From the NCBI GenBank assembly GCA_902768795.1, contig CACXMS010000004.1, forward strand, positions 109,479 through 173,478: DNA of 64,000 nucleotides. Reading direction: 5' to 3'. The notes under the pieces were generated by a model. That model did not search any database, had not been told where the DNA came from, and saw only the letters and a program-made list of their open reading frames with translations. Source of the DNA: an uncultured Eubacteriales bacterium (lineage in GTDB: Bacteria; Bacillota; Clostridia; Christensenellales; CAG-138). Made by a program: the position numbers and the translations under genes. Of this stretch, positions 22,824-63,755 are shown one piece after another. The first letter of the stretch is position 1; every line of letters starts with the position of its first letter.

Positions 22824-23969
22824 TTACGGATCGATCTCCAGTTCTTTGAGCAGCTTCACGCGCTGCGCGCCGCGCTCATAGTCCTTTCCGAGCTGCGCGC
22901 CGTTTCGCTTCATCCGAATGCCCTGCCCGATGTATCGGAAAATCTGATAGATCCAGCAGAACGGCTTCAGCCACCGGTGCTTGCGGTACGCTTTCCAGTT
23001 GTCCTCTCCCGCCTGTTGCAGATATCGGAAAACGCCCTTCTGCCGCAGATTGGCAACGGCGGCTTCCACCCGCCTGCCGTCCGGACGCTTGAAACCGAAA
23101 TTGCCCGACAAAAACACGCTCTCCATCAGCTCCTCGCAGAGCTGCGGATCGGCGTCCCGACACCAGGTGAGCCGCTCCGAAAGCCCGAGATACCTTTGGC
23201 AAAGCCGCGTCGCCACCACCGCGATCGTCTCAAGGCCGCACGCCCGCGCCGCCGCGCCGAACGCGCTCTCCCAAAAAGCATCGTCCAGCTCCCGGTCCGC
23301 ATACAGCATCCAGTCAATGATCTGCCTCAGCCCGAGCCCGACGCGAAGATGCTGCCCCATGTGCGTCAGCAGCACCAGCCCGTTTTCGAGCTTCGGCAGC
23401 ATCGGAAACGATGTGCCGAGAAGCCGGGCGGTCTCGGCATGCTCCGCGCCCTTCTGGATATACGATTCCGTGACCGTTTCGCCCTCGCAGAAAAACCGGT
23501 GCATCTCAAACAGCACGTTGTCCCGGATCACGTCGATGTGCCGCGGGTACGTCGGATCCTCCCGGACCGTGTATCCGCTCTGCAGCAGCAGCGCCCTCGC
23601 GCGGTCAAAATGCGCTTTCGGCACCAGAAAATCGATGTCCCCCGTCGTACGCCGGGCCGGATTCGGATAATAGATCGCCGCGGCCGAGCCCTTGAGAATG
23701 ACCGCCGGAACGCCGTTTTTCTGCAGGATCGCGCAAAGCGCGCTCTGATAGTGCAGACTGCGGATCACGCCCGCCGTGACGGTGTTCAGGTGTTCCTTCC
23801 AGGCCCGCCGCACGTCCTCCGGCGCCGCGTCGATCGCAAGACCGAGCACGGCCTGCTCCTCGGCTTCCCGCAGCACCGCGTTCCAGTCCGTGTCCGCGGG
23901 AATCCCGTGATTCGTCTGAAACAGGGAATTCTGCAGAATCTGCAGCAGCGTCTGTTGTGCCTGTGTCAT
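22824..23969 (-). CDS. uncharacterised nucleotidyltransferase-family protein (NTP_transf_5-like)
   Basis: 381 aa. GDIDFLV and DVIRDNVLFEMH resemble the PF14907-type nucleotidyltransferase fold. Assignment from memory of the family. Confidence 0.5.
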   Translation of the reverse strand: MTQAQQTLLQILQNSLFQTNHGIPADTDWNAVLREAEEQAVLGLAIDAAPEDVRRAWKEHLNTVTAGVIRSLHYQSALCAILQKNGVPAVILKGSAAAIYYPNPARRTTGDIDFLVPKAHFDRARALLLQSGYTVREDPTYPRHIDVIRDNVLFEMHRFFCEGETVTESYIQKGAEHAETARLLGTSFPMLPKLENGLVLLTHMGQHLRVGLGLRQIIDWMLYADRELDDAFWESAFGAAARACGLETIAVVATRLCQRYLGLSERLTWCRDADPQLCEELMESVFLSGNFGFKRPDGRRVEAAVANLRQKGVFRYLQQAGEDNWKAYRKHRWLKPFCWIYQIFRYIGQGIRMKRNGAQLGKDYERGAQRVKLLKELEIDP

Positions 23970-24074
23970 ATTGTTCTCCGATGCGATGATATTAACAGTA
24001 TTGTACCACTCCCTGCGCGTTTTTCAATATCGGATCGCCGATTTCCCCGAAAACGCGCAATCCCGCCGCAAAAA

Positions 24075-49654: not shown

Positions 49655-49730
49655 GCTCGATTCGTCTAGTGGCCTAGGACACCGCCCTCTCACGGCGGTA
49701 ACAGGGGTTCGACTCCCCTATCGGGTACCA
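49655..49730 (+). tRNA. tRNA-Glu (anticodon CUC), CCA encoded
   Basis: Folded by hand into a cloverleaf: acceptor GCTCGAT/ATCGGGT (two G-U pairs), anticodon arm CCGCC-CTCTCAC-GGCGG, T arm AGGGG-TTCGACT-CCCCT. The internal sequence resembles canonical bacterial tRNA-Glu. Confidence 0.8.
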
Positions 49731-54502: not shown

Positions 54503-54509
54503 GGTATCC

Positions 54510-54582
54510 GACGCAGGGGCGCGGCAAAGCCGCTGAGAAGTACCCTTGGAACCTGTTGGGTCATGCCATCGTAGGAAGCGTA
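54510..54582 (+). promoter_or_regulatory. TPP (THI-box) riboswitch aptamer
   Basis: Contains GGGGCGCGG...CUGAGA(AG)UACCCUUGGAACCUG(U)UGGGUCAUGCCA(U)CGUAGGAAGCG, which matches the conserved THI-box core. A GC-rich hairpin with a T-rich tract (about 54601-54632) follows, and thiT lies downstream. Confidence 0.8.
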
Positions 54583-54645
54583 GCAAATCTGCTTTTTGAT
54601 GCCGTCCCAGCGGGGCGGCAATTTCATTTCAAAAGGAGTTATACT

Positions 54646-55194
54646 ATGAAAAAAGGCATTCGTATGCTGGCGGAGGGCGGTCTGACCATCGCGCTTTCGC
54701 TTGCGCTGAGCTATCTGAAGATTCCGGTCGTCGGTCTCGGCGGATCCATCGACTTTGTGATGGTCCCGCTGATCATCTATGCCTACCGCTGGAGCGTATG
54801 GCCGGGACTGCTTGTGGGCTGCGCCTTCGGCACGCTCAAATTCTTCCTTGCCGGCGGCACGGCGGTCAACTGGCAGAGCATGCTGCTCGACTACTCGGTC
54901 GCGTACGCTTTCGTCGGCTTTGCGGGTCTGGTCCGCAGAAAGGACGGCCTGCTGCCCGTAGCGGCGCTGCTGGGCGGGATCGGACGGTTTTTGATCCATT
55001 TTGTAAGCGGTATAACGATCTATGCCGAATACGCGGAGCCGACGGCGGATTTCTTCGGCATGTCCATCGCAACGCCGAACGCGATTCTGTTCTCCGTCGT
55101 CTACAACGCAATGTATATGCTGCCGAATACGATCATCGCCATCGTCGTCTGCGCGCTGCTGATCCGGCCGGTCAAGCTGCTCGACCGGTTCTGA
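54646..55194 (+). CDS. thiT: ECF-transporter S component for thiamine
   Basis: 182 aa, six TM segments. LSYLKIP...GGSI, TPP riboswitch upstream, RBS AAAGGAG. Confidence 0.8.
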   Translation: MKKGIRMLAEGGLTIALSLALSYLKIPVVGLGGSIDFVMVPLIIYAYRWSVWPGLLVGCAFGTLKFFLAGGTAVNWQSMLLDYSVAYAFVGFAGLVRRKDGLLPVAALLGGIGRFLIHFVSGITIYAEYAEPTADFFGMSIATPNAILFSVVYNAMYMLPNTIIAIVVCALLIRPVKLLDRF

Positions 55195-55340: not shown

Positions 55341-55426
55341 AAGAAAAGACGGTTTTCTCCGTCTTTTCCACCTGCAAGTATTCTTGTCACAAACAGATGC
55401 CGCAAAATGGTCCGGGCCCTTTATTA
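55341..55426. repeat. convergent-gene spacer element, copy C
   Basis: AAGAAAAGACGGTTTTCTCCGTCTTTTCCACCTGCAAGTATTCTTGTCACAAACAGATGCCGCAAAATG... Confidence 0.65.
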
Positions 55427-56326
55427 ACAGTCTGAGCCGTTTCGGAGCCGCTGCTCGATCGCCGCGGTCTCCCGGATTCCTTTCAGCTTTCTCGTCGCGT
55501 GGACGATCATCCAGAGCGCGATCCCGGTGACCGCCGCCGATACCGCGATGCCGAAGCCGCGGTTCATGTTCTGCCGGAACAGCTCGTCGGTGCCGAAATG
55601 CCGCAGCATCGTGTTCTGCAGAATGAAGATCGACATCAGCGCCGCCGACAGGTTCAGAAGCTTTGACGCCGACAGCAGCGGACGGTCGCTTTTCCGGAAC
55701 TTGACAAGCTGCAGGATCGCCGCCGTCAGGCGATAAAACGCCCAGAGCCCCGAAACATACATGACCGCCGAGAGTGAAACGCGGTCCGCGCCGCTTTGCA
55801 GCGACTGCAGGATCACGAACGTCATGGAAACGTCGAGCACCAGAAGCTGCCAGCCGCAGCTCCGGTACTTTTGCCACGCCTTCTGCGCGCCGCCGCGCCG
55901 GCCGGAAATCGTGCCGAACACGAGCAGGATGCGGATCAGCGACAGCACAAGGTAATAAAACGCTTCGGCGGCAAACAGCAGCGTGCGGTACCGCGCCGCG
56001 GCGAACAGCTTGAACACCGCGTACGCGAGGTTGATCAGCGTGCCGATCCCGAGCGTCACCTCCGAGCGCAGCTCCGCCGCGTCCAGGTACGTTTCGCTGT
56101 ACGTCAGTCCCTTTTGCGCGCGCCGCCGCATCCGCAGCAGGCGCGGAATCATCAGAAGCAGCATCAGCGCCAGTCCTCCGCCGACCGCATAGCTGACGAC
56201 CAGCATCGGCTGCGGCGAAGCGTCGATCGCGTTCGACAGCGCGATCAGCAGCAGATACAGCGGCCCGCCGATCAGAACGGCCAGCGTCAGCAGCACCAGA
56301 ATAAAACGGATCAAAAGCGGGCGCAT
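55424..56326 (-). CDS. multi-pass membrane protein (function unknown)
   Basis: 300 aa, about 8 hydrophobic segments. Confidence 0.5.
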   Translation of the reverse strand: MRPLLIRFILVLLTLAVLIGGPLYLLLIALSNAIDASPQPMLVVSYAVGGGLALMLLLMIPRLLRMRRRAQKGLTYSETYLDAAELRSEVTLGIGTLINLAYAVFKLFAAARYRTLLFAAEAFYYLVLSLIRILLVFGTISGRRGGAQKAWQKYRSCGWQLLVLDVSMTFVILQSLQSGADRVSLSAVMYVSGLWAFYRLTAAILQLVKFRKSDRPLLSASKLLNLSAALMSIFILQNTMLRHFGTDELFRQNMNRGFGIAVSAAVTGIALWMIVHATRKLKGIRETAAIEQRLRNGSDC

Positions 56327-56390: not shown

Positions 56391-57257
56391 TCAGATCGTT
56401 CCGGTCACAACGACGGTCGTAACGCCCGGAACAAACGAAACCGCGCCGGTCGCCGGATCCTGCGTGTAGGTCGCGGCGGGAACGGTCAGCGCCGTTGCGG
56501 CGCCTTCCGCCGGCAGCGTGAGCACGTTGTTTTCAAACGTGAAGTCCGTTTCGGGTACGGCGACGCCGTCGACCGTGACGGCAAGGTCATTCAGCGGCGT
56601 CATAAACGCGTCGGTCAGGACGAGATCGACGGCTTCGGTGTTGCCGGTATTTGTGACGGTAAACGTATTCACAAGCGCGGCGCCGTCGGCGACCGGGTTC
56701 GGACTCATTTCCTTTTCGATCGTGACGGCGGCATACGCCTCCGCCGGAATCGTGTGCGACGCGGCGATCGGCTCGGCGCCGACAGCGGGCGTGAACGATG
56801 CGGTGTTGGTAATCTCGCTGCCCGCAAGCATCGGCGCGTATTCGTTCGGCTCGGCCTTGTAGAGGATCGTCGCATTCGATCCGGGCGCGATCGCCGGGAT
56901 CGTAAACGTCACGCTGCCCTCCGTAATCGCCGGCGTCAGTTCGGCGGAAAACACGCCGTCGAGGTACAGCTGCGCCGGGCCGATATAGGTCAGCGGCGTC
57001 GCCTGCGCGCCGGTCTGCGGCGCGTACGTGCCGAGATCGTCCTCGATCGTCACGTTCGAAAGCGCGGTCGAAGAACCGTTCGTCACCGTGATGACGTACG
57101 TGATCGGTTCGCCGCCGCGGTAGGCCGTCTCGAGCGAAGATTTTGTTACGGTCAGCGGATCGTTCAGCACGGTGCTCGCAAGGTTCGAAGCAACGGTCTC
57201 GGTCACGGCGCCGTACGTGTAGCGAAGATTCGCGCGGTTGGTAATGGTGGTTGCCAT
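56391..57257 (-). CDS. DUF11/conserved-repeat-domain protein without signal peptide
   Basis: Two repeats of the L(T/V)(V/I).K.......G..(I/V).(Y/F).(I/V)TV.N.G...(L/V)..V...D pattern. The N-terminus MATTITNRANLRYTYG has no hydrophobic signal. RBS AAAGGAGA. Confidence 0.55.
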   Translation of the reverse strand: MATTITNRANLRYTYGAVTETVASNLASTVLNDPLTVTKSSLETAYRGGEPITYVITVTNGSSTALSNVTIEDDLGTYAPQTGAQATPLTYIGPAQLYLDGVFSAELTPAITEGSVTFTIPAIAPGSNATILYKAEPNEYAPMLAGSEITNTASFTPAVGAEPIAASHTIPAEAYAAVTIEKEMSPNPVADGAALVNTFTVTNTGNTEAVDLVLTDAFMTPLNDLAVTVDGVAVPETDFTFENNVLTLPAEGAATALTVPAATYTQDPATGAVSFVPGVTTVVVTGTI

Positions 57258-57370: not shown

Positions 57371-57402
57371 AAAAAACGCTGTCGCGCGGCCGGAGCCGCG
57401 CG
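57371..57402 (-). terminator. Rho-independent terminator closing the radical SAM operon
   Basis: Minus-strand reading CGCGCGGCTCCGGCCGCGCG-ACAGCGTTTTTT, 15 nt after the stop of the last radical SAM gene. Confidence 0.7.
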
Positions 57403-57416
57403 ATGCATTCATTTAT

Positions 57417-58742
57417 TTAAGCGTTGTCGTTTGCCAATGCGTTCCGCATGCCGAGCGAAAGGTTCATCGCATGCATTTCGCGGCAGCCGTAATCGGAAAC
57501 CGAGCAGCCGGAAAACGGCGTGCAGAGCGGCAGGTAGGGGCAGTTTCTGCATTTTTCCTGCCCGCTGTCGATCCTGCCCATGGCGTCCCAGCGTTCCCGG
57601 TCGGTAACACCGTCCCAGATGTTTCCGAACGACTTGTCTTCCTCGCAGTGCTCGCAGGCATACAGCTTTCCGTCCGGCGCAATCACGATTTCCCGGCCCC
57701 TTCCGTCCGCCATGCAGCCGTATAATTTCATACGGTCCGGGAAACCGTCAAAGTTCGGGGGAAATCCGGATTGCAGCAGATACCTGTCCGCTTCGATGAT
57801 TTTCTGATGCAGCTCCGCTTCCCGATCGGACATGCGCGAGGCAAAGAGCTGCGGAAACGCGATCCGCACTTTTTCCTTATCGGGAATCATACGCGCCGCG
57901 TCCGCAACAAAATCCGGGATCCGGTCCGCGTTTTCCGAATCGACGTTGCACCCGAGCAAAACCTGAATCCCGTTTTTCGCCAGGATTTCCGCATTTTTCA
58001 GAATATCGAAATACTGATTGCCGTAAACCGGGTACTGCTTCCGGCTCCGGTAAACCGCTTCGTCTCCCTCCATCGAAATCTGGACATGGTAGGTTTTCCA
58101 CAAACCGAGCATCTTTGAAAGGACGGAATCGTCGATCAGACTGCCGTTCGTGACGATCGAGGAACGGAAATCCACGCCTTCTTCCGTCAGCCGCCGCGAA
58201 ATCGCGTCGATGATCTGCGGGCGGGTCAGCGGTTCGCCGCCGAACCAGGAGAGCGTGATTTTGACCCGGTCCCGTTTCGTATCCAAAATGAAACGAACGG
58301 CCTGCTTTGCGGTTTCCTCCGACATCGAAACGATCCGATAGCCCTGCTCAAAGCAATAGACGCAGCGCGCGTTGCATCCGGTGGTCGGAAGGATCGTGTA
58401 CTTGAAATACCCTTCCTTTTCGTCCCTTTTCCGGAGCAGAAACAGGGTGCTCCGGTAAAACGCTTCGTCCTGAAAATCGACCGGCACCAAAAAATAGCGC
58501 TGCATCAGCCAAAAAAGCTGCGGGTCTTTTTCCACCGTTTCCGCGGAAAAGACGGAATCGGAAAAGCGTTCGTTCCGCAGAAGAACGCATTGCGTCGTCA
58601 GAGTGTGAAACAGGACCGTATTTCCGTCCTTTTCTTCCCAAACGCAATAGATCGACCGGCGGTACGAAGCCGACGGTTTGAGTTTCTGCTCTCCGATCAG
58701 GGACCGGAACGCGCTGTCTTGCTTTTGAATTTCTTTTCGCAT
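57417..58742 (-). CDS. radical SAM/SPASM peptide-modifying enzyme, paralog 1 (441 aa)
   Basis: CNARCVYC (CxxxCxxC) about 120 aa from the N-terminus. C-terminal Cys-rich SPASM-like region (CMADG...ACEHC...CRNCPYLPLCTPFSGC). The start overlaps the stop of paralog 2 by 1 nt. Confidence 0.85.
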   Translation of the reverse strand: MRKEIQKQDSAFRSLIGEQKLKPSASYRRSIYCVWEEKDGNTVLFHTLTTQCVLLRNERFSDSVFSAETVEKDPQLFWLMQRYFLVPVDFQDEAFYRSTLFLLRKRDEKEGYFKYTILPTTGCNARCVYCFEQGYRIVSMSEETAKQAVRFILDTKRDRVKITLSWFGGEPLTRPQIIDAISRRLTEEGVDFRSSIVTNGSLIDDSVLSKMLGLWKTYHVQISMEGDEAVYRSRKQYPVYGNQYFDILKNAEILAKNGIQVLLGCNVDSENADRIPDFVADAARMIPDKEKVRIAFPQLFASRMSDREAELHQKIIEADRYLLQSGFPPNFDGFPDRMKLYGCMADGRGREIVIAPDGKLYACEHCEEDKSFGNIWDGVTDRERWDAMGRIDSGQEKCRNCPYLPLCTPFSGCSVSDYGCREMHAMNLSLGMRNALANDNA

Positions 58743-60058
58743 CAGAACTCGTTTTCCTCAATCACTTTTTTAAACCCGCATTCCACCTGATACGCGGGAA
58801 GCACGTCGCATTGGGGATTCTTAAAGGGACAATCCTCAAAAGGCGTGCAAATGGGCAAATAGGCACAGTTTTCGCATTTTTCTTTGATCTTGCCGATTCG
58901 ATTCCGTTCTTTCCATTTTTCGGAATCGGTTATGCCGTTCCTGACATCGCCGAACGAAGTGCCTTCAATGCAATCCGAACAGCCGAAAAGCCTGCCGAGC
59001 GGATCTATGGTGACGCTTTCCGTTGTTCCATCATTCGGGCAGAAGAAAAACGGGACACAAGCAGGAAAATCATCAAATCGATAGGAGAATCCCATCTTAT
59101 GCGCGATATCGGCAAGTTCGAACGCCTTCTTCCAAAGAATTTCTCCGTGCATTTTTCTTTCCTGGAAAAGAGGCGCAAAGTAAACTTTCACTTTGGACGG
59201 TTCTCTGATCGCCTGTTTCAGATCGCCGAGGAACTCTTCCCCCTTGTCAATATTGTCCAAGTCAACATTGCACCTGATCACGGGCTGAATGCCGTTTTGA
59301 GCCAAACCGTTGACCGCTTCCATAACCGAATGATACTCGTCATGGTAATGATAATAATTTCTTCGTTTGATATACTCCTCTTCGGCGCAGTCCATGGAAA
59401 TCTGAACCAATTCAGTCGCCCATTCATGCTTCATTTTCCAAATGATTTTATCGTTGATCAGACTGCCGTTTGTAATCATGCACGAAGAAAAATCAATCTC
59501 CTCGTTTCGTAAACGATCCGAAATCAGATCAATGGCTTTTTCTCCCAAAAGCGGTTCTCCGCCATACCAGAACAACTGAAGTTTTGTGTTCTTCCGAAGG
59601 GTGGCAACGATAAAAGAAGCTGTCGCAAGCGCCGTTTCCTCTGTCATGGTTACTTTCCTCATTCCCTCTTCATAGCAATAAGGACATCTTGCGTTGCAGC
59701 CGCTTGTCGGCAAAATATAATAAATGGGGTATCCTTTCCCTCCCCGAAGCAAGCGAAGCATTTTATATATGCTGTAATAATTCTGACTTTCATTCAAGCT
59801 TTCTTTCACATAAAACCAGTCTTCCGTCAGAATCTTCAGTTCGGGATCCTTTTCGATTTCCGATCCCAAAAGCCGCTTTGGAAGCGACCGCAGGTCCAAC
59901 TGCCGGCATTGGGTTGTCAGGGTATGATACAAATACAAATGCTTCTCCGTTTCTTTCACAACAACGAAGGAGGAAAGCTTATACACAAGATCGACGCACA
60001 GTTTCTGTGCGCCGATTGTCTTCTTGATAACTCTATACGGTCTTTTTAATTCTTTCAT
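58742..60058 (-). CDS. radical SAM/SPASM peptide-modifying enzyme, paralog 2 (438 aa)
   Basis: CNARCPYC. C-terminal CPNDG...GCSDC...CENCAYLPICTPFEDC. Starts 3 nt after the stop of precursor 1. Confidence 0.85.
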   Translation of the reverse strand: MKELKRPYRVIKKTIGAQKLCVDLVYKLSSFVVVKETEKHLYLYHTLTTQCRQLDLRSLPKRLLGSEIEKDPELKILTEDWFYVKESLNESQNYYSIYKMLRLLRGGKGYPIYYILPTSGCNARCPYCYEEGMRKVTMTEETALATASFIVATLRKNTKLQLFWYGGEPLLGEKAIDLISDRLRNEEIDFSSCMITNGSLINDKIIWKMKHEWATELVQISMDCAEEEYIKRRNYYHYHDEYHSVMEAVNGLAQNGIQPVIRCNVDLDNIDKGEEFLGDLKQAIREPSKVKVYFAPLFQERKMHGEILWKKAFELADIAHKMGFSYRFDDFPACVPFFFCPNDGTTESVTIDPLGRLFGCSDCIEGTSFGDVRNGITDSEKWKERNRIGKIKEKCENCAYLPICTPFEDCPFKNPQCDVLPAYQVECGFKKVIEENEF

Positions 60059-60061
60059 AAA

Positions 60062-60217
60062 TCAAGCCGTATGGTACGAACCCGTGCAGGTATAATAAAC
60101 ATTCGCGTTGCAGGGCGTGGGCTCCGGCGTATCGGTCGGGGTCGGCTCGCCGCTTGCGGTAACGACGTCGTTCGCCAGGCTTTCGACGTCCATTTCAGGC
60201 GTGAAATATTTTTCCAT
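60062..60217 (-). CDS. candidate RiPP precursor 1: MEKYFTPEMDVESLANDVVTASGEPTPTDTPEPTPCNANVYYTCTGSYHTA
   Basis: 51 aa from the internal ATG with RBS AAAGGAG. Shares its leader with three other sORFs and lies directly upstream of a radical SAM gene. Confidence 0.75.
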   Translation of the reverse strand: MEKYFTPEMDVESLANDVVTASGEPTPTDTPEPTPCNANVYYTCTGSYHTA

Positions 60218-60277
60218 AAACTCCTTTTTCCCTTTCTTTTTTTCTGTATTCAAAAACAGGGCATTGTTCCGAAGCGA

Positions 60278-60409
60278 TCAATCAAAATAGACGCCGGGGG
60301 TATACGATTTCAACGTGCAGGGCGTGGACTCCGGCGTAACGCCGCTTGCGGTAACGACGTCGTTCGCCAGACTTTCAATGTCCATTTCCGGCGCTGTATA
60401 CTTTTTCAT
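60278..60409 (-). CDS. candidate RiPP precursor 2: MKKYTAPEMDIESLANDVVTASGVTPESTPCTLKSYTPGVYFD
   Basis: 43 aa with the same leader. Promoter-like TTGACA-17-TATGAT lies upstream. The RBS is weak. Confidence 0.65.
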   Translation of the reverse strand: MKKYTAPEMDIESLANDVVTASGVTPESTPCTLKSYTPGVYFD

Positions 60410-60440
60410 AAACGCTTCTGATTTCTCTTTGTTTTTTATT

Positions 60441-60469
60441 ATCATACGCAAAATACAGCTTCCTGTCAA
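60441..60469 (-). promoter_or_regulatory. sigma-70-like promoter (TTGACA-17-TATGAT) upstream of precursor 2
   Basis: Minus-strand TTGACA (60469-60464) and TATGAT (60446-60441) with a 17-nt spacer. Confidence 0.55.
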
Positions 60470-60486
60470 GTCCCGCGTGCTGCCGC

Positions 60487-61821
60487 TCATTTGCTTTCCG
60501 GGGCGGATTCGATCCTTGCGATCAGGTTTTCAAAACCCTGCGTTACGACGCGTCTCGGCTTTTCTTTGCAGTCTTCCTCTTCATGCGGACATCTGGAAAA
60601 CGGCGTACAGAGCGGCAGATAGGGGCAGTCTTGGCATTTTTTCCGGATCTCGCACAGTTCGTTGCTTTTTTTCCAGTTCTCCTGCTCCACGATCCCGTTC
60701 CGGACGTCGCCGTACAGGGCGTTCGGAATGCAGTCATGGCAGCCGTAGAGCTTTCCGTCCTGCGCGACCGTGATTCTGCCGCTTGCTCCGTCGAAAGAGC
60801 AGTAAAAAGGAAGGATATGAGAAGGCAGATCCGAAAATTGTCTCGAGAATCCTTCTTCTTTAACGAGTCTGTCCAGCTCGTAGGTTTTCTCCCAAAGCAA
60901 AGGCGAATCTTCCCGGCCTCTTGTTTCAACCAAAGGCTCAAAATAAACGACGACTTTGGAAGGATCCTTCACTTCCTTTTTCAGATCCCGCAAAAATCCG
61001 GCTCCTTCTTCCACGTTATCCCAATCGACGTTGCAGCGCACATAGGTCGCTATTCCGTTTTCGTTCAACGCATTGACGTTTTTCATGACGGAACAGTATT
61101 CGTCGTGATAGGAATAATAGTTCTTTCTCCGGATGTATTCCGCTTCTCCGGCGTCCATGGAAACCTGAACGGTATGGATGTTCCACCGTTCCTTCATTTT
61201 TTGCAGGATCCGGCTGTTGATCAGACTGCCGTTTGTCAGCATCGTTCCACTAAAAGGAACCTGATGCTCCCGCAGATAATCTGAAATCAGATCAATCTTC
61301 TTTTCTCCCAGCAGCGGTTCTCCGCCGAACCAGAACAGAACGATTGTTTCATTTTTACGATGCGTTTCCGCGATAAACTTTGCTGTCTGCAGGGCGGTCT
61401 CTTCCGTCATGCTTTTATGCTGCATCTCCTCATGGATACAGTACACGCACCTTGCGTTGCATCCGTTGGTCGGATACAAGATATAATTGTAGTATCCGCT
61501 TTTCGATTCAAGCGTTCTTAAAATACGCCAAAACCCGTAATAAAATTCGTTTTCATCTGTCCCTTTTTCGACATAAAACCAATTCTTCACCATCGTTTCC
61601 AGATCCGGCCGACCGGTAAGCTCCTCCGAAGAAACGGATTCTTTGAGAACGGTTTTTTCAAGCTGCAAGCATTGATGCGTAAAGGTATGAAACAGATACA
61701 GATACCTGTCCGATTCCTTTTGAACGGCAAAGCGGGACAGCTGATATTCCTTGCCGGACTGAATCGTCTGCGCGCCGATGATCCTGCCGAACCGGCGGTC
61801 TTGTTTCTTGATTTCTTTCAT
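60487..61821 (-). CDS. radical SAM/SPASM peptide-modifying enzyme, paralog 3 (444 aa from MKEIKKQD)
   Basis: CNARCVYC. C-terminal CSFDG...GCHDC...CQDCPYLPLCTPFSRC. Start chosen by alignment with the paralogs (an upstream in-frame ATG at 61896 is possible). Confidence 0.85.
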   Translation of the reverse strand: MKEIKKQDRRFGRIIGAQTIQSGKEYQLSRFAVQKESDRYLYLFHTFTHQCLQLEKTVLKESVSSEELTGRPDLETMVKNWFYVEKGTDENEFYYGFWRILRTLESKSGYYNYILYPTNGCNARCVYCIHEEMQHKSMTEETALQTAKFIAETHRKNETIVLFWFGGEPLLGEKKIDLISDYLREHQVPFSGTMLTNGSLINSRILQKMKERWNIHTVQVSMDAGEAEYIRRKNYYSYHDEYCSVMKNVNALNENGIATYVRCNVDWDNVEEGAGFLRDLKKEVKDPSKVVVYFEPLVETRGREDSPLLWEKTYELDRLVKEEGFSRQFSDLPSHILPFYCSFDGASGRITVAQDGKLYGCHDCIPNALYGDVRNGIVEQENWKKSNELCEIRKKCQDCPYLPLCTPFSRCPHEEEDCKEKPRRVVTQGFENLIARIESAPESK

Positions 61822-61947
61822 GGATTTTGTCCTTTGCCTTCGATTTCGCAGCGTTTGAATGCGTCGGAAATCCGCCCTGAACCGCTTCAAAAGCATCGGC
61901 GCACAATAATGTGCGCCGAAAACCTTCCGTACAATGTTCTAACGTGA

Positions 61948-62094
61948 TTAATCACTCCATGTGCAAGAATGAACCTGTGTCAACGTGCAGGGCGTGGGTT
62001 CCGGCGTGTCGGTCGGCTCCGGCTCGCCGCTTGCGGTAACGACGTCGTTCGCCAGACTTTCAACGTCCATTTCAGGCGTTAAATACTTTTTCAT
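61948..62094 (-). CDS. candidate RiPP precursor 3: MKKYLTPEMDVESLANDVVTASGEPEPTDTPEPTPCTLTQVHSCTWSD
   Basis: 48 aa, below the ORF-track cutoff, found by manual translation. RBS AAAAGGAG and promoter TTGACA-17-TATTAT upstream. Confidence 0.75.
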   Translation of the reverse strand: MKKYLTPEMDVESLANDVVTASGEPEPTDTPEPTPCTLTQVHSCTWSD

Positions 62095-62123
62095 AAAATG
62101 CTCCTTTTCAATCCTTTTTTAAA

Positions 62124-62152
62124 ATAATATATCGAAAGACATCCTTTGTCAA
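62124..62152 (-). promoter_or_regulatory. sigma-70-like promoter (TTGACA-17-TATTAT) upstream of precursor 3
   Basis: Minus-strand TTGACA (62152-62147) and TATTAT (62129-62124). Confidence 0.6.
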
Positions 62153-62221
62153 GCCCGAATATATGCGCCGGAGCGTTTTTTAACAGTTCGATCGGCAAAT
62201 GTCCGATTCCGGTTCCGTCTT

Positions 62222-63535
62222 CTATTCGTTTTCCGCGATGATGCGCTCAAGCCCCATATCGATCTCGTGCATGGGAAGCGCTTTGCAGTTCGCCTGCACG
62301 TGCGGACATTTGGAGAACGGCGTGCAGAGCGGCAGACAGACGCAGGTTTTGCACTCTTCGCGGATTTCACAAATCTCGTTGTGACTGTTCCACATCTCCT
62401 TGTCGACGACGCCGTTCCAGACGTCTCCGAAAGAGGTCCCTTCGACGCACGCTTCGCATGCGAGCAGGCGGCCCTCCGTATCAATCACAACGCCTTCCTG
62501 GCCGTCGCTCATGCATTTGTAAAGCGTAAAGAAATTGGGCAAATGCTCAAAGCGATTGGCAAACCCCTCTTCGCGTACGACGTGATCCAACCGGAACACA
62601 TTTTTCCAGATGCTGTCCCCGTCCGCGGCTCTCGACTGATGCAGCGGCGCAAAATACAGGGGAACTTTGGACGGCTCGCGGACCGCTTTCTTCAGATCGC
62701 GGATAAACTCCTCCGCGTATGCGATATTGTCCATGTCAACATTGACTCTGACCATAACGCCGACGTCGTTTTGAACCAGTTCGTTGACTTTCTCCATGAT
62801 GGTGAAATATTCGTTGTGATAAGAATAATAATTCTTTCTCCGGATATATTCCTGTTCTCCGCAGTCCATGGAAATCTGAACGAGGTCCATCTTCCAAAGA
62901 TCGTGCATTTTATGAATGATGCGTTCGTTGATCAGACTTCCGTTTGTGATCATATTGGAAAAATAATCAATCTTCTCATTTTGCAGATATTCCGTGATCA
63001 GATCGATCTTTTTTTCTTCAATCAACGGTTCTCCGCCCCACCAGGTCAAACAAATTTTTGCCCCTTTGCGATGGGTGGAAGCGATATATGCGGCGGCTTG
63101 CCTGGCGGTTTCCGCTTTCATGGACCGTTTTTTCATGTCCTCCTCGATGCAGTAAACGCATCTGGCGTTGCATTTGCTGGTCGGATAAATGAGATAGTGG
63201 ACAAATCCCTTTTCCGCCCGGAATGCTCTCAGAATTTTGAATACGCTGAAATACTGCCGGCTCTCGTCGTAATCCTGCTTGACATAGAACCACTCCTCCG
63301 TCAGCTTTTTGAGATCGGGATTGTTTTCAATCTCCTCGGCCGACAGTTGCTCCCGCATCAGATCCCGGTCCGTCTGATAGCATTGTTTTGTCAACGTATG
63401 AAACAGATAGAGATGGTTCTCCGTCTTTTTTGCAACGACAAAGCGGGAGCGGCGATACATAGTATCGGCGCACAATTTTTGTGCGCCGATAAATTTCCAC
63501 ACAAGCGGAACTTTCTCTTGTAATTCCCTCATCAT
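62222..63535 (-). CDS. radical SAM/SPASM peptide-modifying enzyme, paralog 4 (437 aa from MMRELQEK)
   Basis: CNARCVYC. C-terminal CMSDG...ACEAC...CKTCVCLPLCTPFSKC. The ATG lies 1 nt after the precursor 4 stop, and the longer track ORF overlaps the precursor. Confidence 0.85.
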   Translation of the reverse strand: MMRELQEKVPLVWKFIGAQKLCADTMYRRSRFVVAKKTENHLYLFHTLTKQCYQTDRDLMREQLSAEEIENNPDLKKLTEEWFYVKQDYDESRQYFSVFKILRAFRAEKGFVHYLIYPTSKCNARCVYCIEEDMKKRSMKAETARQAAAYIASTHRKGAKICLTWWGGEPLIEEKKIDLITEYLQNEKIDYFSNMITNGSLINERIIHKMHDLWKMDLVQISMDCGEQEYIRRKNYYSYHNEYFTIMEKVNELVQNDVGVMVRVNVDMDNIAYAEEFIRDLKKAVREPSKVPLYFAPLHQSRAADGDSIWKNVFRLDHVVREEGFANRFEHLPNFFTLYKCMSDGQEGVVIDTEGRLLACEACVEGTSFGDVWNGVVDKEMWNSHNEICEIREECKTCVCLPLCTPFSKCPHVQANCKALPMHEIDMGLERIIAENE

Positions 63536-63536
63536 A

Positions 63537-63689
63537 TTATGCGGTATAATATGGGTTGTGACCGTAGACATACGTCATCGTGCAGGGCGTGGGCTCCGGC
63601 GTGTCGGTCGGCTCCGGCTCAGCGCTTGCGGTAACGACGTCGTTCGCCAGACTTTCGATATCAATTTCAGGCGTCAAATATTTCTTCAT
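63537..63689 (-). CDS. candidate RiPP precursor 4: MKKYLTPEIDIESLANDVVTASAEPEPTDTPEPTPCTMTYVYGHNPYYTA
   Basis: 50 aa, below the ORF-track cutoff, found by manual translation. RBS AAAGGAG and promoter TTGACA-17-TAAACT upstream. Confidence 0.75.
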   Translation of the reverse strand: MKKYLTPEIDIESLANDVVTASAEPEPTDTPEPTPCTMTYVYGHNPYYTA

Positions 63690-63726
63690 AAAAATATTAT
63701 ACTCCTTTCGCTCTTTTAGCTCAATG

Positions 63727-63755
63727 AGTTTATCTCATAAGTCTTGTTCTGTCAA
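63727..63755 (-). promoter_or_regulatory. sigma-70-like promoter (TTGACA-17-TAAACT) upstream of precursor 4
   Basis: Minus-strand TTGACA (63755-63750) and TAAACT (63732-63727). Confidence 0.55.

Follow-up and report, generated by a model that had tools for sequence, protein, structure and literature searches.

A stripped-down radical SAM/SPASM peptide locus with four precursor genes and four maturase genes in an uncultured Eubacteriales bacterium

The minus strand of a 64,000-nt stretch of contig CACXMS010000004.1 (uncultured Eubacteriales bacterium, assembly GCA_902768795.1; hereafter the window, the numbering of which is used for all positions) carries at 57382-63755 four precursor genes (P1 to P4, 43-51 aa) and four genes for radical S-adenosylmethionine (SAM) enzymes with a SPASM-type C-terminal region (rSAM1 to rSAM4, 437-444 aa). 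This is a genuine, uncharacterised and stripped-down multi-cassette locus for peptides that are made on ribosomes and modified after translation (RiPPs), in which these enzymes very probably act on these peptides. A sequence-only reading of the DNA had proposed a multi-precursor RiPP locus with radical SAM/SPASM maturases, and the leader-bearing peptides, the conserved neighbourhood, the predicted fold and the Cys motifs all support that proposal. The eight genes were found on the minus strand in the unit order that had been described, as three units, P4-rSAM4, P3-rSAM3 and P2-P1-rSAM2-rSAM1, each headed by a promoter-like site (Table 1). With hidden Markov models (HMMs), the only leader matches in the window were the open reading frames (ORFs) of P1 to P4 (E 1e-14 to 1e-16) and the only matches to the enzyme family were rSAM1 to rSAM4. 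The pattern is far beyond chance expectation.

Precursor peptides, maturases and gene arrangement

The four peptides begin with a common leader, M(K/E)KY..PE(M/I)D(V/I)ESLANDVVTAS(G/A). A Pro/Thr/Glu spacer follows, which is EPEPTDTPEPTP in three precursors and the shorter VTPESTP in P2, and then come four unrelated cores of about 13-16 residues that start with Cys (CTMTYVYGHNPYYTA, CTLTQVHSCTWSD, CTLKSYTPGVYFD and CNANVYYTCTGSYHTA). The cores are rich in Tyr, His and Trp and contain one or two Cys each. Within the clade formed with the nearest relatives, Cys occupies core position 1 in all six core types and in all strain variants, and an aromatic pair lies one or two residues from the C-terminus (YYTA, WSD, YFD, YHTA, YYR, YYA). 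The features that define a RiPP precursor, a conserved leader, a hypervariable core and a position next to the enzyme gene in unrelated genomes, are all found. At the DNA level the leaders are 83-93% identical among the four genes and the enzyme genes 62-66%; because the leaders are the more alike, their DNA was either homogenised or duplicated much later than the enzymes. Core DNA is much less conserved (54-69% in short gapped alignments).

Eight peptides were scanned with the Pfam and NCBIfam models without a match, no SCIFF precursor signature was detected in P1 to P4, and PapB-type CxxxD repeats are missing from the cores. A literature search for the leader and core strings and for the family returned no description, although the coverage of the literature was incomplete and a prior description is possible. 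The sequence-only reading had not recognised the leader or the cores as those of any characterised RiPP family, and neither they nor the enzymes fall under a curated family or a paper that could be searched.

Tight coupling of all genes, with gaps of 1-3 nt or 1-nt overlaps, had also been described. This holds for P4 and rSAM4 (1 nt), for P1 and rSAM2 (3 nt) and for rSAM2 and rSAM1 (1-nt overlap), but not for P3 and rSAM3, which are separated by a 126-nt non-coding gap with a hairpin, nor for P2 and P1, which are 60 nt apart. The promoter-like sites are consensus matches only; 16 were found against 5.9 +/- 3.1 in shuffles. Longer gene starts were rejected. The longest ORFs of rSAM3 (469 aa) and rSAM4 (449 aa) overlap a precursor or the non-coding hairpin and have no homology support in the added part, and in the 63-aa ORF of P1 and the 70-aa ORF of P2 the leader homology starts at an internal Met. 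The P2 promoter-like site falls within the 70-aa ORF.

Table 1. Features of the peptide locus in window coordinates
Feature	Position	Strand	Description
Promoter-like site 5' of P4	63727..63755	-	TTGACA-17-TAAACT; consensus match only, 10/12
Overlapping alternative promoter-like site 5' of P4	63724-63696	-	TTGAGC-17-TATAAT; consensus match only
Precursor P4	63537..63689	-	50 aa, MKKYLTPEIDIESLANDVVTASAEPEPTDTPEPTPCTMTYVYGHNPYYTA; leader, Pro/Thr/Glu spacer and core A; leader HMM E 2.9e-13
rSAM4	62222..63535	-	A-type radical SAM/SPASM maturase, 437 aa
Hairpin, perfect 11-bp palindrome in rSAM4 5' coding region	63465..63489	-	48 nt past P4 stop; dG -22.7, z -4.8
Promoter-like site 5' of P3	62124..62152	-	TTGACA-17-TATTAT; consensus match only, 11/12
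Precursor P3	61948..62094	-	48 aa, MKKYLTPEMDVESLANDVVTASGEPEPTDTPEPTPCTLTQVHSCTWSD; core B
Hairpin and T-tract in P3-rSAM3 gap	61896..61919	-	dG -26.7, z -5.4
rSAM3	60487..61821	-	A-type radical SAM/SPASM maturase, 444 aa
Promoter-like site 5' of P2	60441..60469	-	TTGACA-17-TATGAT; consensus match only, 11/12
Precursor P2	60278..60409	-	43 aa, MKKYTAPEMDIESLANDVVTASGVTPESTPCTLKSYTPGVYFD; core C, short spacer
Precursor P1	60062..60217	-	51 aa, MEKYFTPEMDVESLANDVVTASGEPTPTDTPEPTPCNANVYYTCTGSYHTA; core D
rSAM2	58742..60058	-	A-type maturase, 438 aa
Hairpin in rSAM2 coding sequence	59991..60015	-	dG -21.2, z -4.5
rSAM1	57417..58742	-	B-type maturase, 441 aa
Intrinsic-terminator-like hairpin, end of locus	57382..57403	-	9 pairs (8 GC), then T-run

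The enzymes carry the motifs expected of radical SAM/SPASM proteins. An alignment of 18 homologues shows no variation in CNARCxYC, in GGEPL or in eight C-terminal Cys, the C-terminal set being C341-x13-G355-x4-C360-x2-C363 ... C395-x2-C398-x5-C404-x5-C410-x6-C417. This includes the seven-Cys SPASM motif that holds two auxiliary 4Fe-4S clusters (Cx9-15Gx4C ... Cx2Cx5Cx3C ... C), with a spacing of x5 where the canonical motif has x3. Judged by these residues, none of the four looks like a dead paralogue. The radical SAM motif, noted earlier as CNARC(V/P)YC, is confirmed by PF04055, which scores 48-56 bits in all four enzymes against a gathering score of 29.5. The SPASM-type C-terminal region holds for the Cys motif and the fold but does not reach the Pfam threshold: PF13186 gives 18.9 bits for rSAM1 against 21.5 and no match for the other three, so the SPASM call is based on motif and fold match. 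As had been seen, the enzymes are diverged paralogues (37-52% identity). They comprise an A-type (rSAM2, rSAM3 and rSAM4, 46-52% mutual identity) and a B-type, rSAM1, which shares 37-39% identity with these three.

An AlphaFold2 model of rSAM4 (mean predicted local distance difference test score, pLDDT, 89) has as its best full-length fold match the SCIFF thioether synthase CteB (PDB 5WHY/5WGG, E about 1e-17, best 9e-18). TigE ranks second, followed by the anaerobic sulfatase-maturating enzyme anSME (E 1e-12), SkfB and SuiB, and the alignment extends across the SPASM region of CteB and anSME. CteB is also first in a sequence-profile search of the PDB (7.9e-23). The best NCBIfam alignments are to TIGR04463, CefB, geopeptide, Clo7bot, FlmE/OhkG and PapB, which are maturases of short Cys-rich peptides or thioether maturases, and the strongest of them reach into the N-terminal domain. 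Yet none of the four enzymes reaches any curated NCBIfam cut-off, the best score being 119 bits against 525. The ranges are 93-119 bits for TIGR04463 (rSAM_vs_C_rich, cut-off 525), 86-107 for CefB (600), 80-103 for Clo7bot (600), 86-107 for geopeptide (400) and 69-85 for the PapB-family ranthipeptide maturase NF047865 (340). All of these families are maturases of short Cys-containing peptides, and the window enzymes score far below every one of the cut-offs. In GenBank the homologues, from Clostridia metagenome-assembled genomes (MAGs), are named "radical SAM protein" or "4Fe-4S cluster-binding domain-containing protein".

Relatives of the locus and known radical SAM peptide systems

The nearest other species is represented by the Clostridia MAG GCA_045132395.1 (locus L002, found again as L096). 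Its module consists of a first precursor, MKKYIAPEMTIQDFSKDVIVTSG-CSTTHIHDPYYR, a second precursor, MKKYVAPEINVQNFEKDVIVTSA-CTSYYNSHQGTYYA, an A-type enzyme 63% identical to rSAM4 and an overlapping B-type enzyme 56% identical to rSAM1. The arrangement precursor-precursor-A-B is that of P2-P1-rSAM2-rSAM1, and the cores again start with Cys and carry a terminal aromatic pair. B-type enzymes were found only as the second enzyme of such a module and in these two species only; a metagenome scan for more of them returned the L002 species again and nothing else.

The wider family is large. An enzyme profile search gave more than 150 representatives (50% clustering) with a full-length E below 1e-91 and 4,124 at E <= 1e-30, and a genome scan gave at least 513 confirmed relatives among the first 600 matching stretches, from which 80 loci were kept. 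Most of these belong to MAGs of rumen and gut Clostridia; other phyla account for a few. Enzyme relatives are present in all 82 genome loci that were fetched, and six enzymes of the wider family missed every NCBIfam cut-off too. In many of these loci a peptide with the leader MEKYEKPVMEV..(D/E)VILTS and a highly diverse core is encoded directly 5' of the enzyme. Conservation of the short ORFs next to homologues had been proposed as a check, and leader-bearing ORFs are indeed kept upstream of homologues across dozens of genomes. Discrete PqqD (PF05402, 50.9 bits) occurs in 45 of the 82 loci, an HprK/ScmC-like protein in 32, a signal-peptidase-I-like protein of about 154 aa in 26 and an ABC exporter in 24; none of these is encoded beside the window locus or L002. 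The window clade shares the enzyme family and the leader family of these rumen and gut loci, to which it adds the Pro/Thr/Glu spacer, the B-type enzyme and the four cassettes, without the accessory genes. Given the accessory genes of the relatives and their absence here, the clade is best seen as a stripped-down derivative of a common, unnamed RiPP family.

Comparison with known systems gives partial likenesses. CteB, which makes the thioethers of SCIFF peptides (thermocellin; PDB 5WGG, 5WHY; TIGR03974, precursor TIGR03973), has the same succession of N-terminal domain, radical SAM core and SPASM domain with two auxiliary clusters, is the best match by both profile and fold, and is encoded in a minimal locus of precursor and enzyme only. 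However, the window enzymes are only about 16-17% identical to it and score 41-63 bits against a cut-off of 425, SCIFF has six Cys (six-Cys-in-45) where the window cores have one or two, and the window has four paralogues with four precursors. The genes of thuricin CD (TrnA, TrnB, TrnC, TrnD) come in the order seen in P2-P1-rSAM2-rSAM1 and L002, with a pair of diverged radical SAM/SPASM enzymes after a pair of precursors. There is no detectable close sequence relationship, though, and TrnC/D-type models are not among the best NCBIfam matches; the window cores are much shorter (12-16 aa), contain one or two Cys, and are joined by two extra precursor-enzyme cassettes. Thuricin CD also has transporter genes nearby, and none lie beside the window locus. 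Ruminococcin C (RumC1-C5, RumMC1, RumMC2) likewise comes from gut Clostridia and combines multiple precursors with radical SAM enzymes (PMC10470295, PMC8188230). The RumMC model gives 35-42 bits against a cut-off of 720, the RumC cores are about 44 aa long with four thioethers, and the ratio of precursors to enzymes is 5:2 rather than 4:4.

Multi-precursor radical SAM RiPP loci are thus already known, and the enzymes come from a large family that is common in rumen MAGs; the locus is not a new principle unless its chemistry proves novel. It is the most compact and most multiplied example among the loci seen, with four cassettes and no accessory genes. The enzyme and leader families are abundant in rumen and gut Clostridia yet are not detected by curated NCBIfam models. 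The Hungate1000 survey, which used antiSMASH-based detection of biosynthetic gene clusters, lists as its ranthipeptide rule TIGR03973, the model for SCIFF precursors (PMC13289728), and this locus would escape such a rule. RiPPs made by radical SAM/SPASM enzymes have proved to yield new peptide chemistry, narrow-spectrum antibiotics and gut-community signals. The eight small genes form a convenient test bed for the function of the family, for core specificity versus cooperation of the paralogues and for the shortest core, among lengths of 12-16 aa, that can be cyclised.

Proposed maturation pathway and competing explanations

The evidence suggests a possible maturation pathway, which as a whole we regard as likely. 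Hairpins in the transcripts would provide more precursor than enzyme message. The shared leader would dock on the N-terminal domain of the enzymes, and the Pro/Thr/Glu spacer would carry the core to the active site. There the radical SAM cluster would generate a 5'-deoxyadenosyl radical that takes a hydrogen from a core residue, after which capture of the core radical within the same molecule would close a small macrocycle. Enzymes of the SPASM radical SAM type act by removing a hydrogen from a peptide carbon, and thioether synthases bind the substrate Cys at auxiliary cluster I. By analogy, the likeliest capture would be by the invariant first Cys, held at the auxiliary SPASM cluster, to form a sactionine- or ranthionine-type thioether with a downstream residue. 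That the cross-link is such a Cys thioether appears somewhat more probable than its opposite. Leader removal and export would have to depend on genes outside the locus.

The leader-recognition domain known as the RiPP recognition element (RRE) is a leader-binding winged helix-turn-helix of three strands and three helices that is homologous to PqqD. The structure models are suggestive in this respect, and the N-terminal ~110 residues of the enzymes are a likely candidate for such a domain. The alignment of the complete rSAM4 model spans CteB, TigE and SuiB, three enzymes that bear an RRE, from end to end. A separate model of the domain (pLDDT 92) has an RRE-compatible order of strands and helices, and its best PDB matches, ThcOx, TbiB1 with leader and lasso B1, are all leader-binding RRE proteins. 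For the PqqD-like domain that had been suggested, the fold is thus encouraging, but the sequence is not.

Several observations weigh against the proposed pathway, which is drawn from gene content, sequence and predicted folds. The PDB matches of the isolated N-terminal domain are weak (E 0.035-0.9, TM 0.2-0.4), an hhalign comparison with the discrete PqqD neighbours of relatives gives a probability of 0.6%, and Pfam finds no match in the domain and only noise at E <= 10. TigE, the second-best fold match, forms C-C bonds. Some relatives have cores that lack Cys, such as L003 (GDPIVEQPTAE) and L057 (GGGDMQAEH), so the wider family is not uniformly thioether-forming. No peptidase, exporter or PqqD gene lies beside the locus, and the full window, when searched, yielded no ORF resembling PqqD, a signal peptidase or HprK; the sole match in this accessory-gene search was a weak NTP_transf_5-like ORF at 22827-24023 (E 9e-5).

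These points bear in part on the identity of the cross-link. Instead of a thioether, the enzymes could form C-C or C-O bonds on the conserved Tyr, His or Trp, as in cyclophanes, streptide or darobactin, or could introduce another modification, with a different role for the Cys. The aromatic pair near the C-terminus of all clade cores, the Cys-free cores of relatives and the high rank of the C-C bond former TigE fit this option, which we nevertheless consider unlikely. The cyclophane (triceptide) maturases AmcB, GrrM/OscB and YhhB match the window enzymes in the radical SAM core alone, with 32-50 bits against cut-offs of 310-445, whereas the best full-length alignments are to Cys-rich-peptide maturases and CteB, and Cys is invariant at core position 1 in the clade. 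A more elaborate scheme would combine an undescribed class of cross-link, for example from the N-terminal Cys to the C-terminal Tyr/Trp/His pair or as two links made by A- and B-types, with a recombining cassette array in which homogenised leader DNA allows core-plus-enzyme swaps and hairpins embedded in coding sequence set the ratio of precursor to enzyme; we find this less probable still. The locus might also hold anaerobic sulfatase-maturating or cofactor radical SAM enzymes next to fortuitous short ORFs. The appearance of anSME among the structural matches (E 1e-12) would agree with this, but the enzymes reach only 49-53 bits with the anSME model TIGR03942 (cut-off 349) and 35-53 bits with the anSME, heme, NirJ and MoaA models taken together (cut-offs 231-650), they carry a 110-aa N-terminal domain, their neighbours are peptides with leaders conserved 5' of homologues across dozens of genomes, and many relatives are accompanied by PqqD, a peptidase-like gene and an ABC exporter. 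The sequence-only reading had named full-length matches to such families, homologous loci without peptide neighbours and unconserved short ORFs as findings that would speak against it. None of the three was obtained, which supports the RiPP assignment; the non-RiPP reading is already contradicted and extremely improbable.

The assignment of enzymes to cores is less clear. It had been proposed that each paralogue matures its own core. This could not be established, because the B-type rSAM1 occurs only in the precursor-precursor-A-B module and because some relatives (L044, L051, L057) have a single precursor followed by two or three tandem enzymes. Both facts would rather fit A- and B-types that form a complex or act successively on the same peptides. 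The window and L002/L096 share the precursor-precursor-A-B order, in which the A and B genes overlap, and it is also the gene order of thuricin CD, where neither TrnC nor TrnD modifies the precursors alone and a tight complex of the two acts on both (PMC12093266). In the ruminococcin C system five precursors are served by two maturases (PMC10470295). The near-identical leaders would let any enzyme bind any precursor, and rSAM1, given the leader common to all four, may have each of them as a substrate. Core A is closest to core E of L002 and not to the precursor adjacent to the closest orthologue of rSAM4. We tentatively keep joint or sequential action as a serious contender. Against it stand the equal numbers of precursors and enzymes, the private A-type enzyme of P4 and of P3 under their own promoter-like sites, an enzyme identity of 37-52% that fits substrate specialisation, and the repeated precursor-enzyme cassettes of L008 and L021. 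In addition, the metagenome contig L095 has the order rSAM3, then the P2 promoter and leader fused to core A with the junction in the leader, then rSAM4, so that core A stayed joined to rSAM4 through the rearrangement; this 958-nt short-read contig may, however, be an assembly chimera over the repeated leader. A mixed model, in which each A-type enzyme is tied to its upstream core and the B-type rSAM1 serves the P2/P1 module as a partner or in a second step, is only slightly favoured; this arrangement, with a core plus the downstream A-type enzyme as the functional unit, comes close to an even prospect without reaching it. Pairing of enzymes and cores by core similarity was tried and rejected, as similarity points to other pairs than adjacency does and the cases are too few to decide.

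RNA hairpins, strain variation and genomic surroundings

A strong hairpin lies 29-48 nt past the last precursor stop of each unit (dG -21 to -27 kcal/mol, z -4.5 to -5.4). Three copies of an 11-bp palindrome, TCGGCGCACA-N-TGTGCG(C/T)CGA, were found, each at a hairpin site, where zero matches to the pattern are expected by chance. Two of the hairpins are coding sequence within enzymes, where they encode IGAQKLCAD or IGAQKLCVD, and the third is non-coding. In rSAM3 and rSAM1, where no precursor comes directly before, the corresponding codons show no folding (z about 0), and the L002 orthologue retains the stem with one compensatory pair and one mismatch. Stem-loops set a precursor excess in other bacteriocin operons, and the pattern seen here fits such a role; the hairpins probably shift the transcript balance towards precursor and away from enzyme. 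The hairpin in the gap between P3 and rSAM3 aligns with the 5' coding palindrome of rSAM4, and from its sequence the gap looks like a leftover of an enzyme 5' end. The gap hairpin is likely an attenuator, a terminator or a recombination scar.

The locus is present with the same four cores intact in at least eight independent metagenome assemblies, several of which have sample names that point to the rumen. P4 is identical or near-identical in eight metagenome contigs, and the P3 gene was found in 36 index blocks, from which 22 contigs were examined. The rSAM4 hairpin loop (63475-63479) shows a small polymorphism inside the gene: it is inverted in 3 of 11 assemblies (L090, L092, L095), from AAAAT to ATTTT, which changes Lys21 to Phe. 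Of the seven listed assemblies that carry the AAAAT loop, six (L085-L089 and L091) have rSAM4 called from Met26, past the hairpin (412 aa), whereas L093, which has this loop too, has it called at 426 aa. In L090 and L092, with the ATTTT loop, the call is at the coupled Met1 (437 aa). These differences may be an artefact of the callers, because the upstream DNA is otherwise identical. Contig L094 joins the P4 leader to a variant of core C, followed by a further precursor, MKKYLTPEMDVESLASDIITASADPNAAP..., and L093 has a variant of core D, CNARVYYSCTSTNYYD; assembly chimeras across the repeat are possible in these contigs too. Cassette shuffling at the strain level, together with hairpins embedded in coding sequence, could show how a RiPP locus diversifies and how its stoichiometry is tuned.

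The GC content of the locus is 0.49, with rSAM2 lowest (0.446) and rSAM1 highest (0.549), against 0.58-0.62 in the flanks; the L002 module (L002 7414-10292) has 0.43 against 0.51-0.54. That both are richer in AT than their flanks suggests, and base composition is consistent with, horizontal acquisition. Transport of the clade by phages is unsupported, because a scan of viral contigs yielded only distant relatives of at most 31% identity.

The locus is flanked by a divergent acyltransferase gene upstream and by genes for a DUF11-repeat protein and a membrane protein downstream. The former of the downstream genes (56391-57257, minus strand) lies just 3' of the terminator and encodes 288 aa with DUF11/DUF7507 repeats; the latter (55424-56326, minus strand) encodes a multi-pass membrane protein of 300 aa that has no Pfam match. 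Both have host-like GC and are probably unrelated to the RiPP locus. The region upstream of P4, past the window end (64000), is variable among L085-L092, and in L085 a 535-aa HAD-like gene is swapped for two small ORFs. Farther upstream these contigs encode a TPR-TIR_2 protein, an RHH protein and a Band_7/SHOCT protein. On the plus strand of the window, a thiamine pyrophosphate (TPP) riboswitch (54505-54594; Rfam RF00059, 61.9 bits) precedes the ORF 54556-55194, which in the matching metagenome contigs has a Thia_YuaJ thiamine-transporter-like gene as its counterpart. Also on the plus strand, 49655-49727 is a tRNA gene (Rfam RF00005, 55.2 bits).

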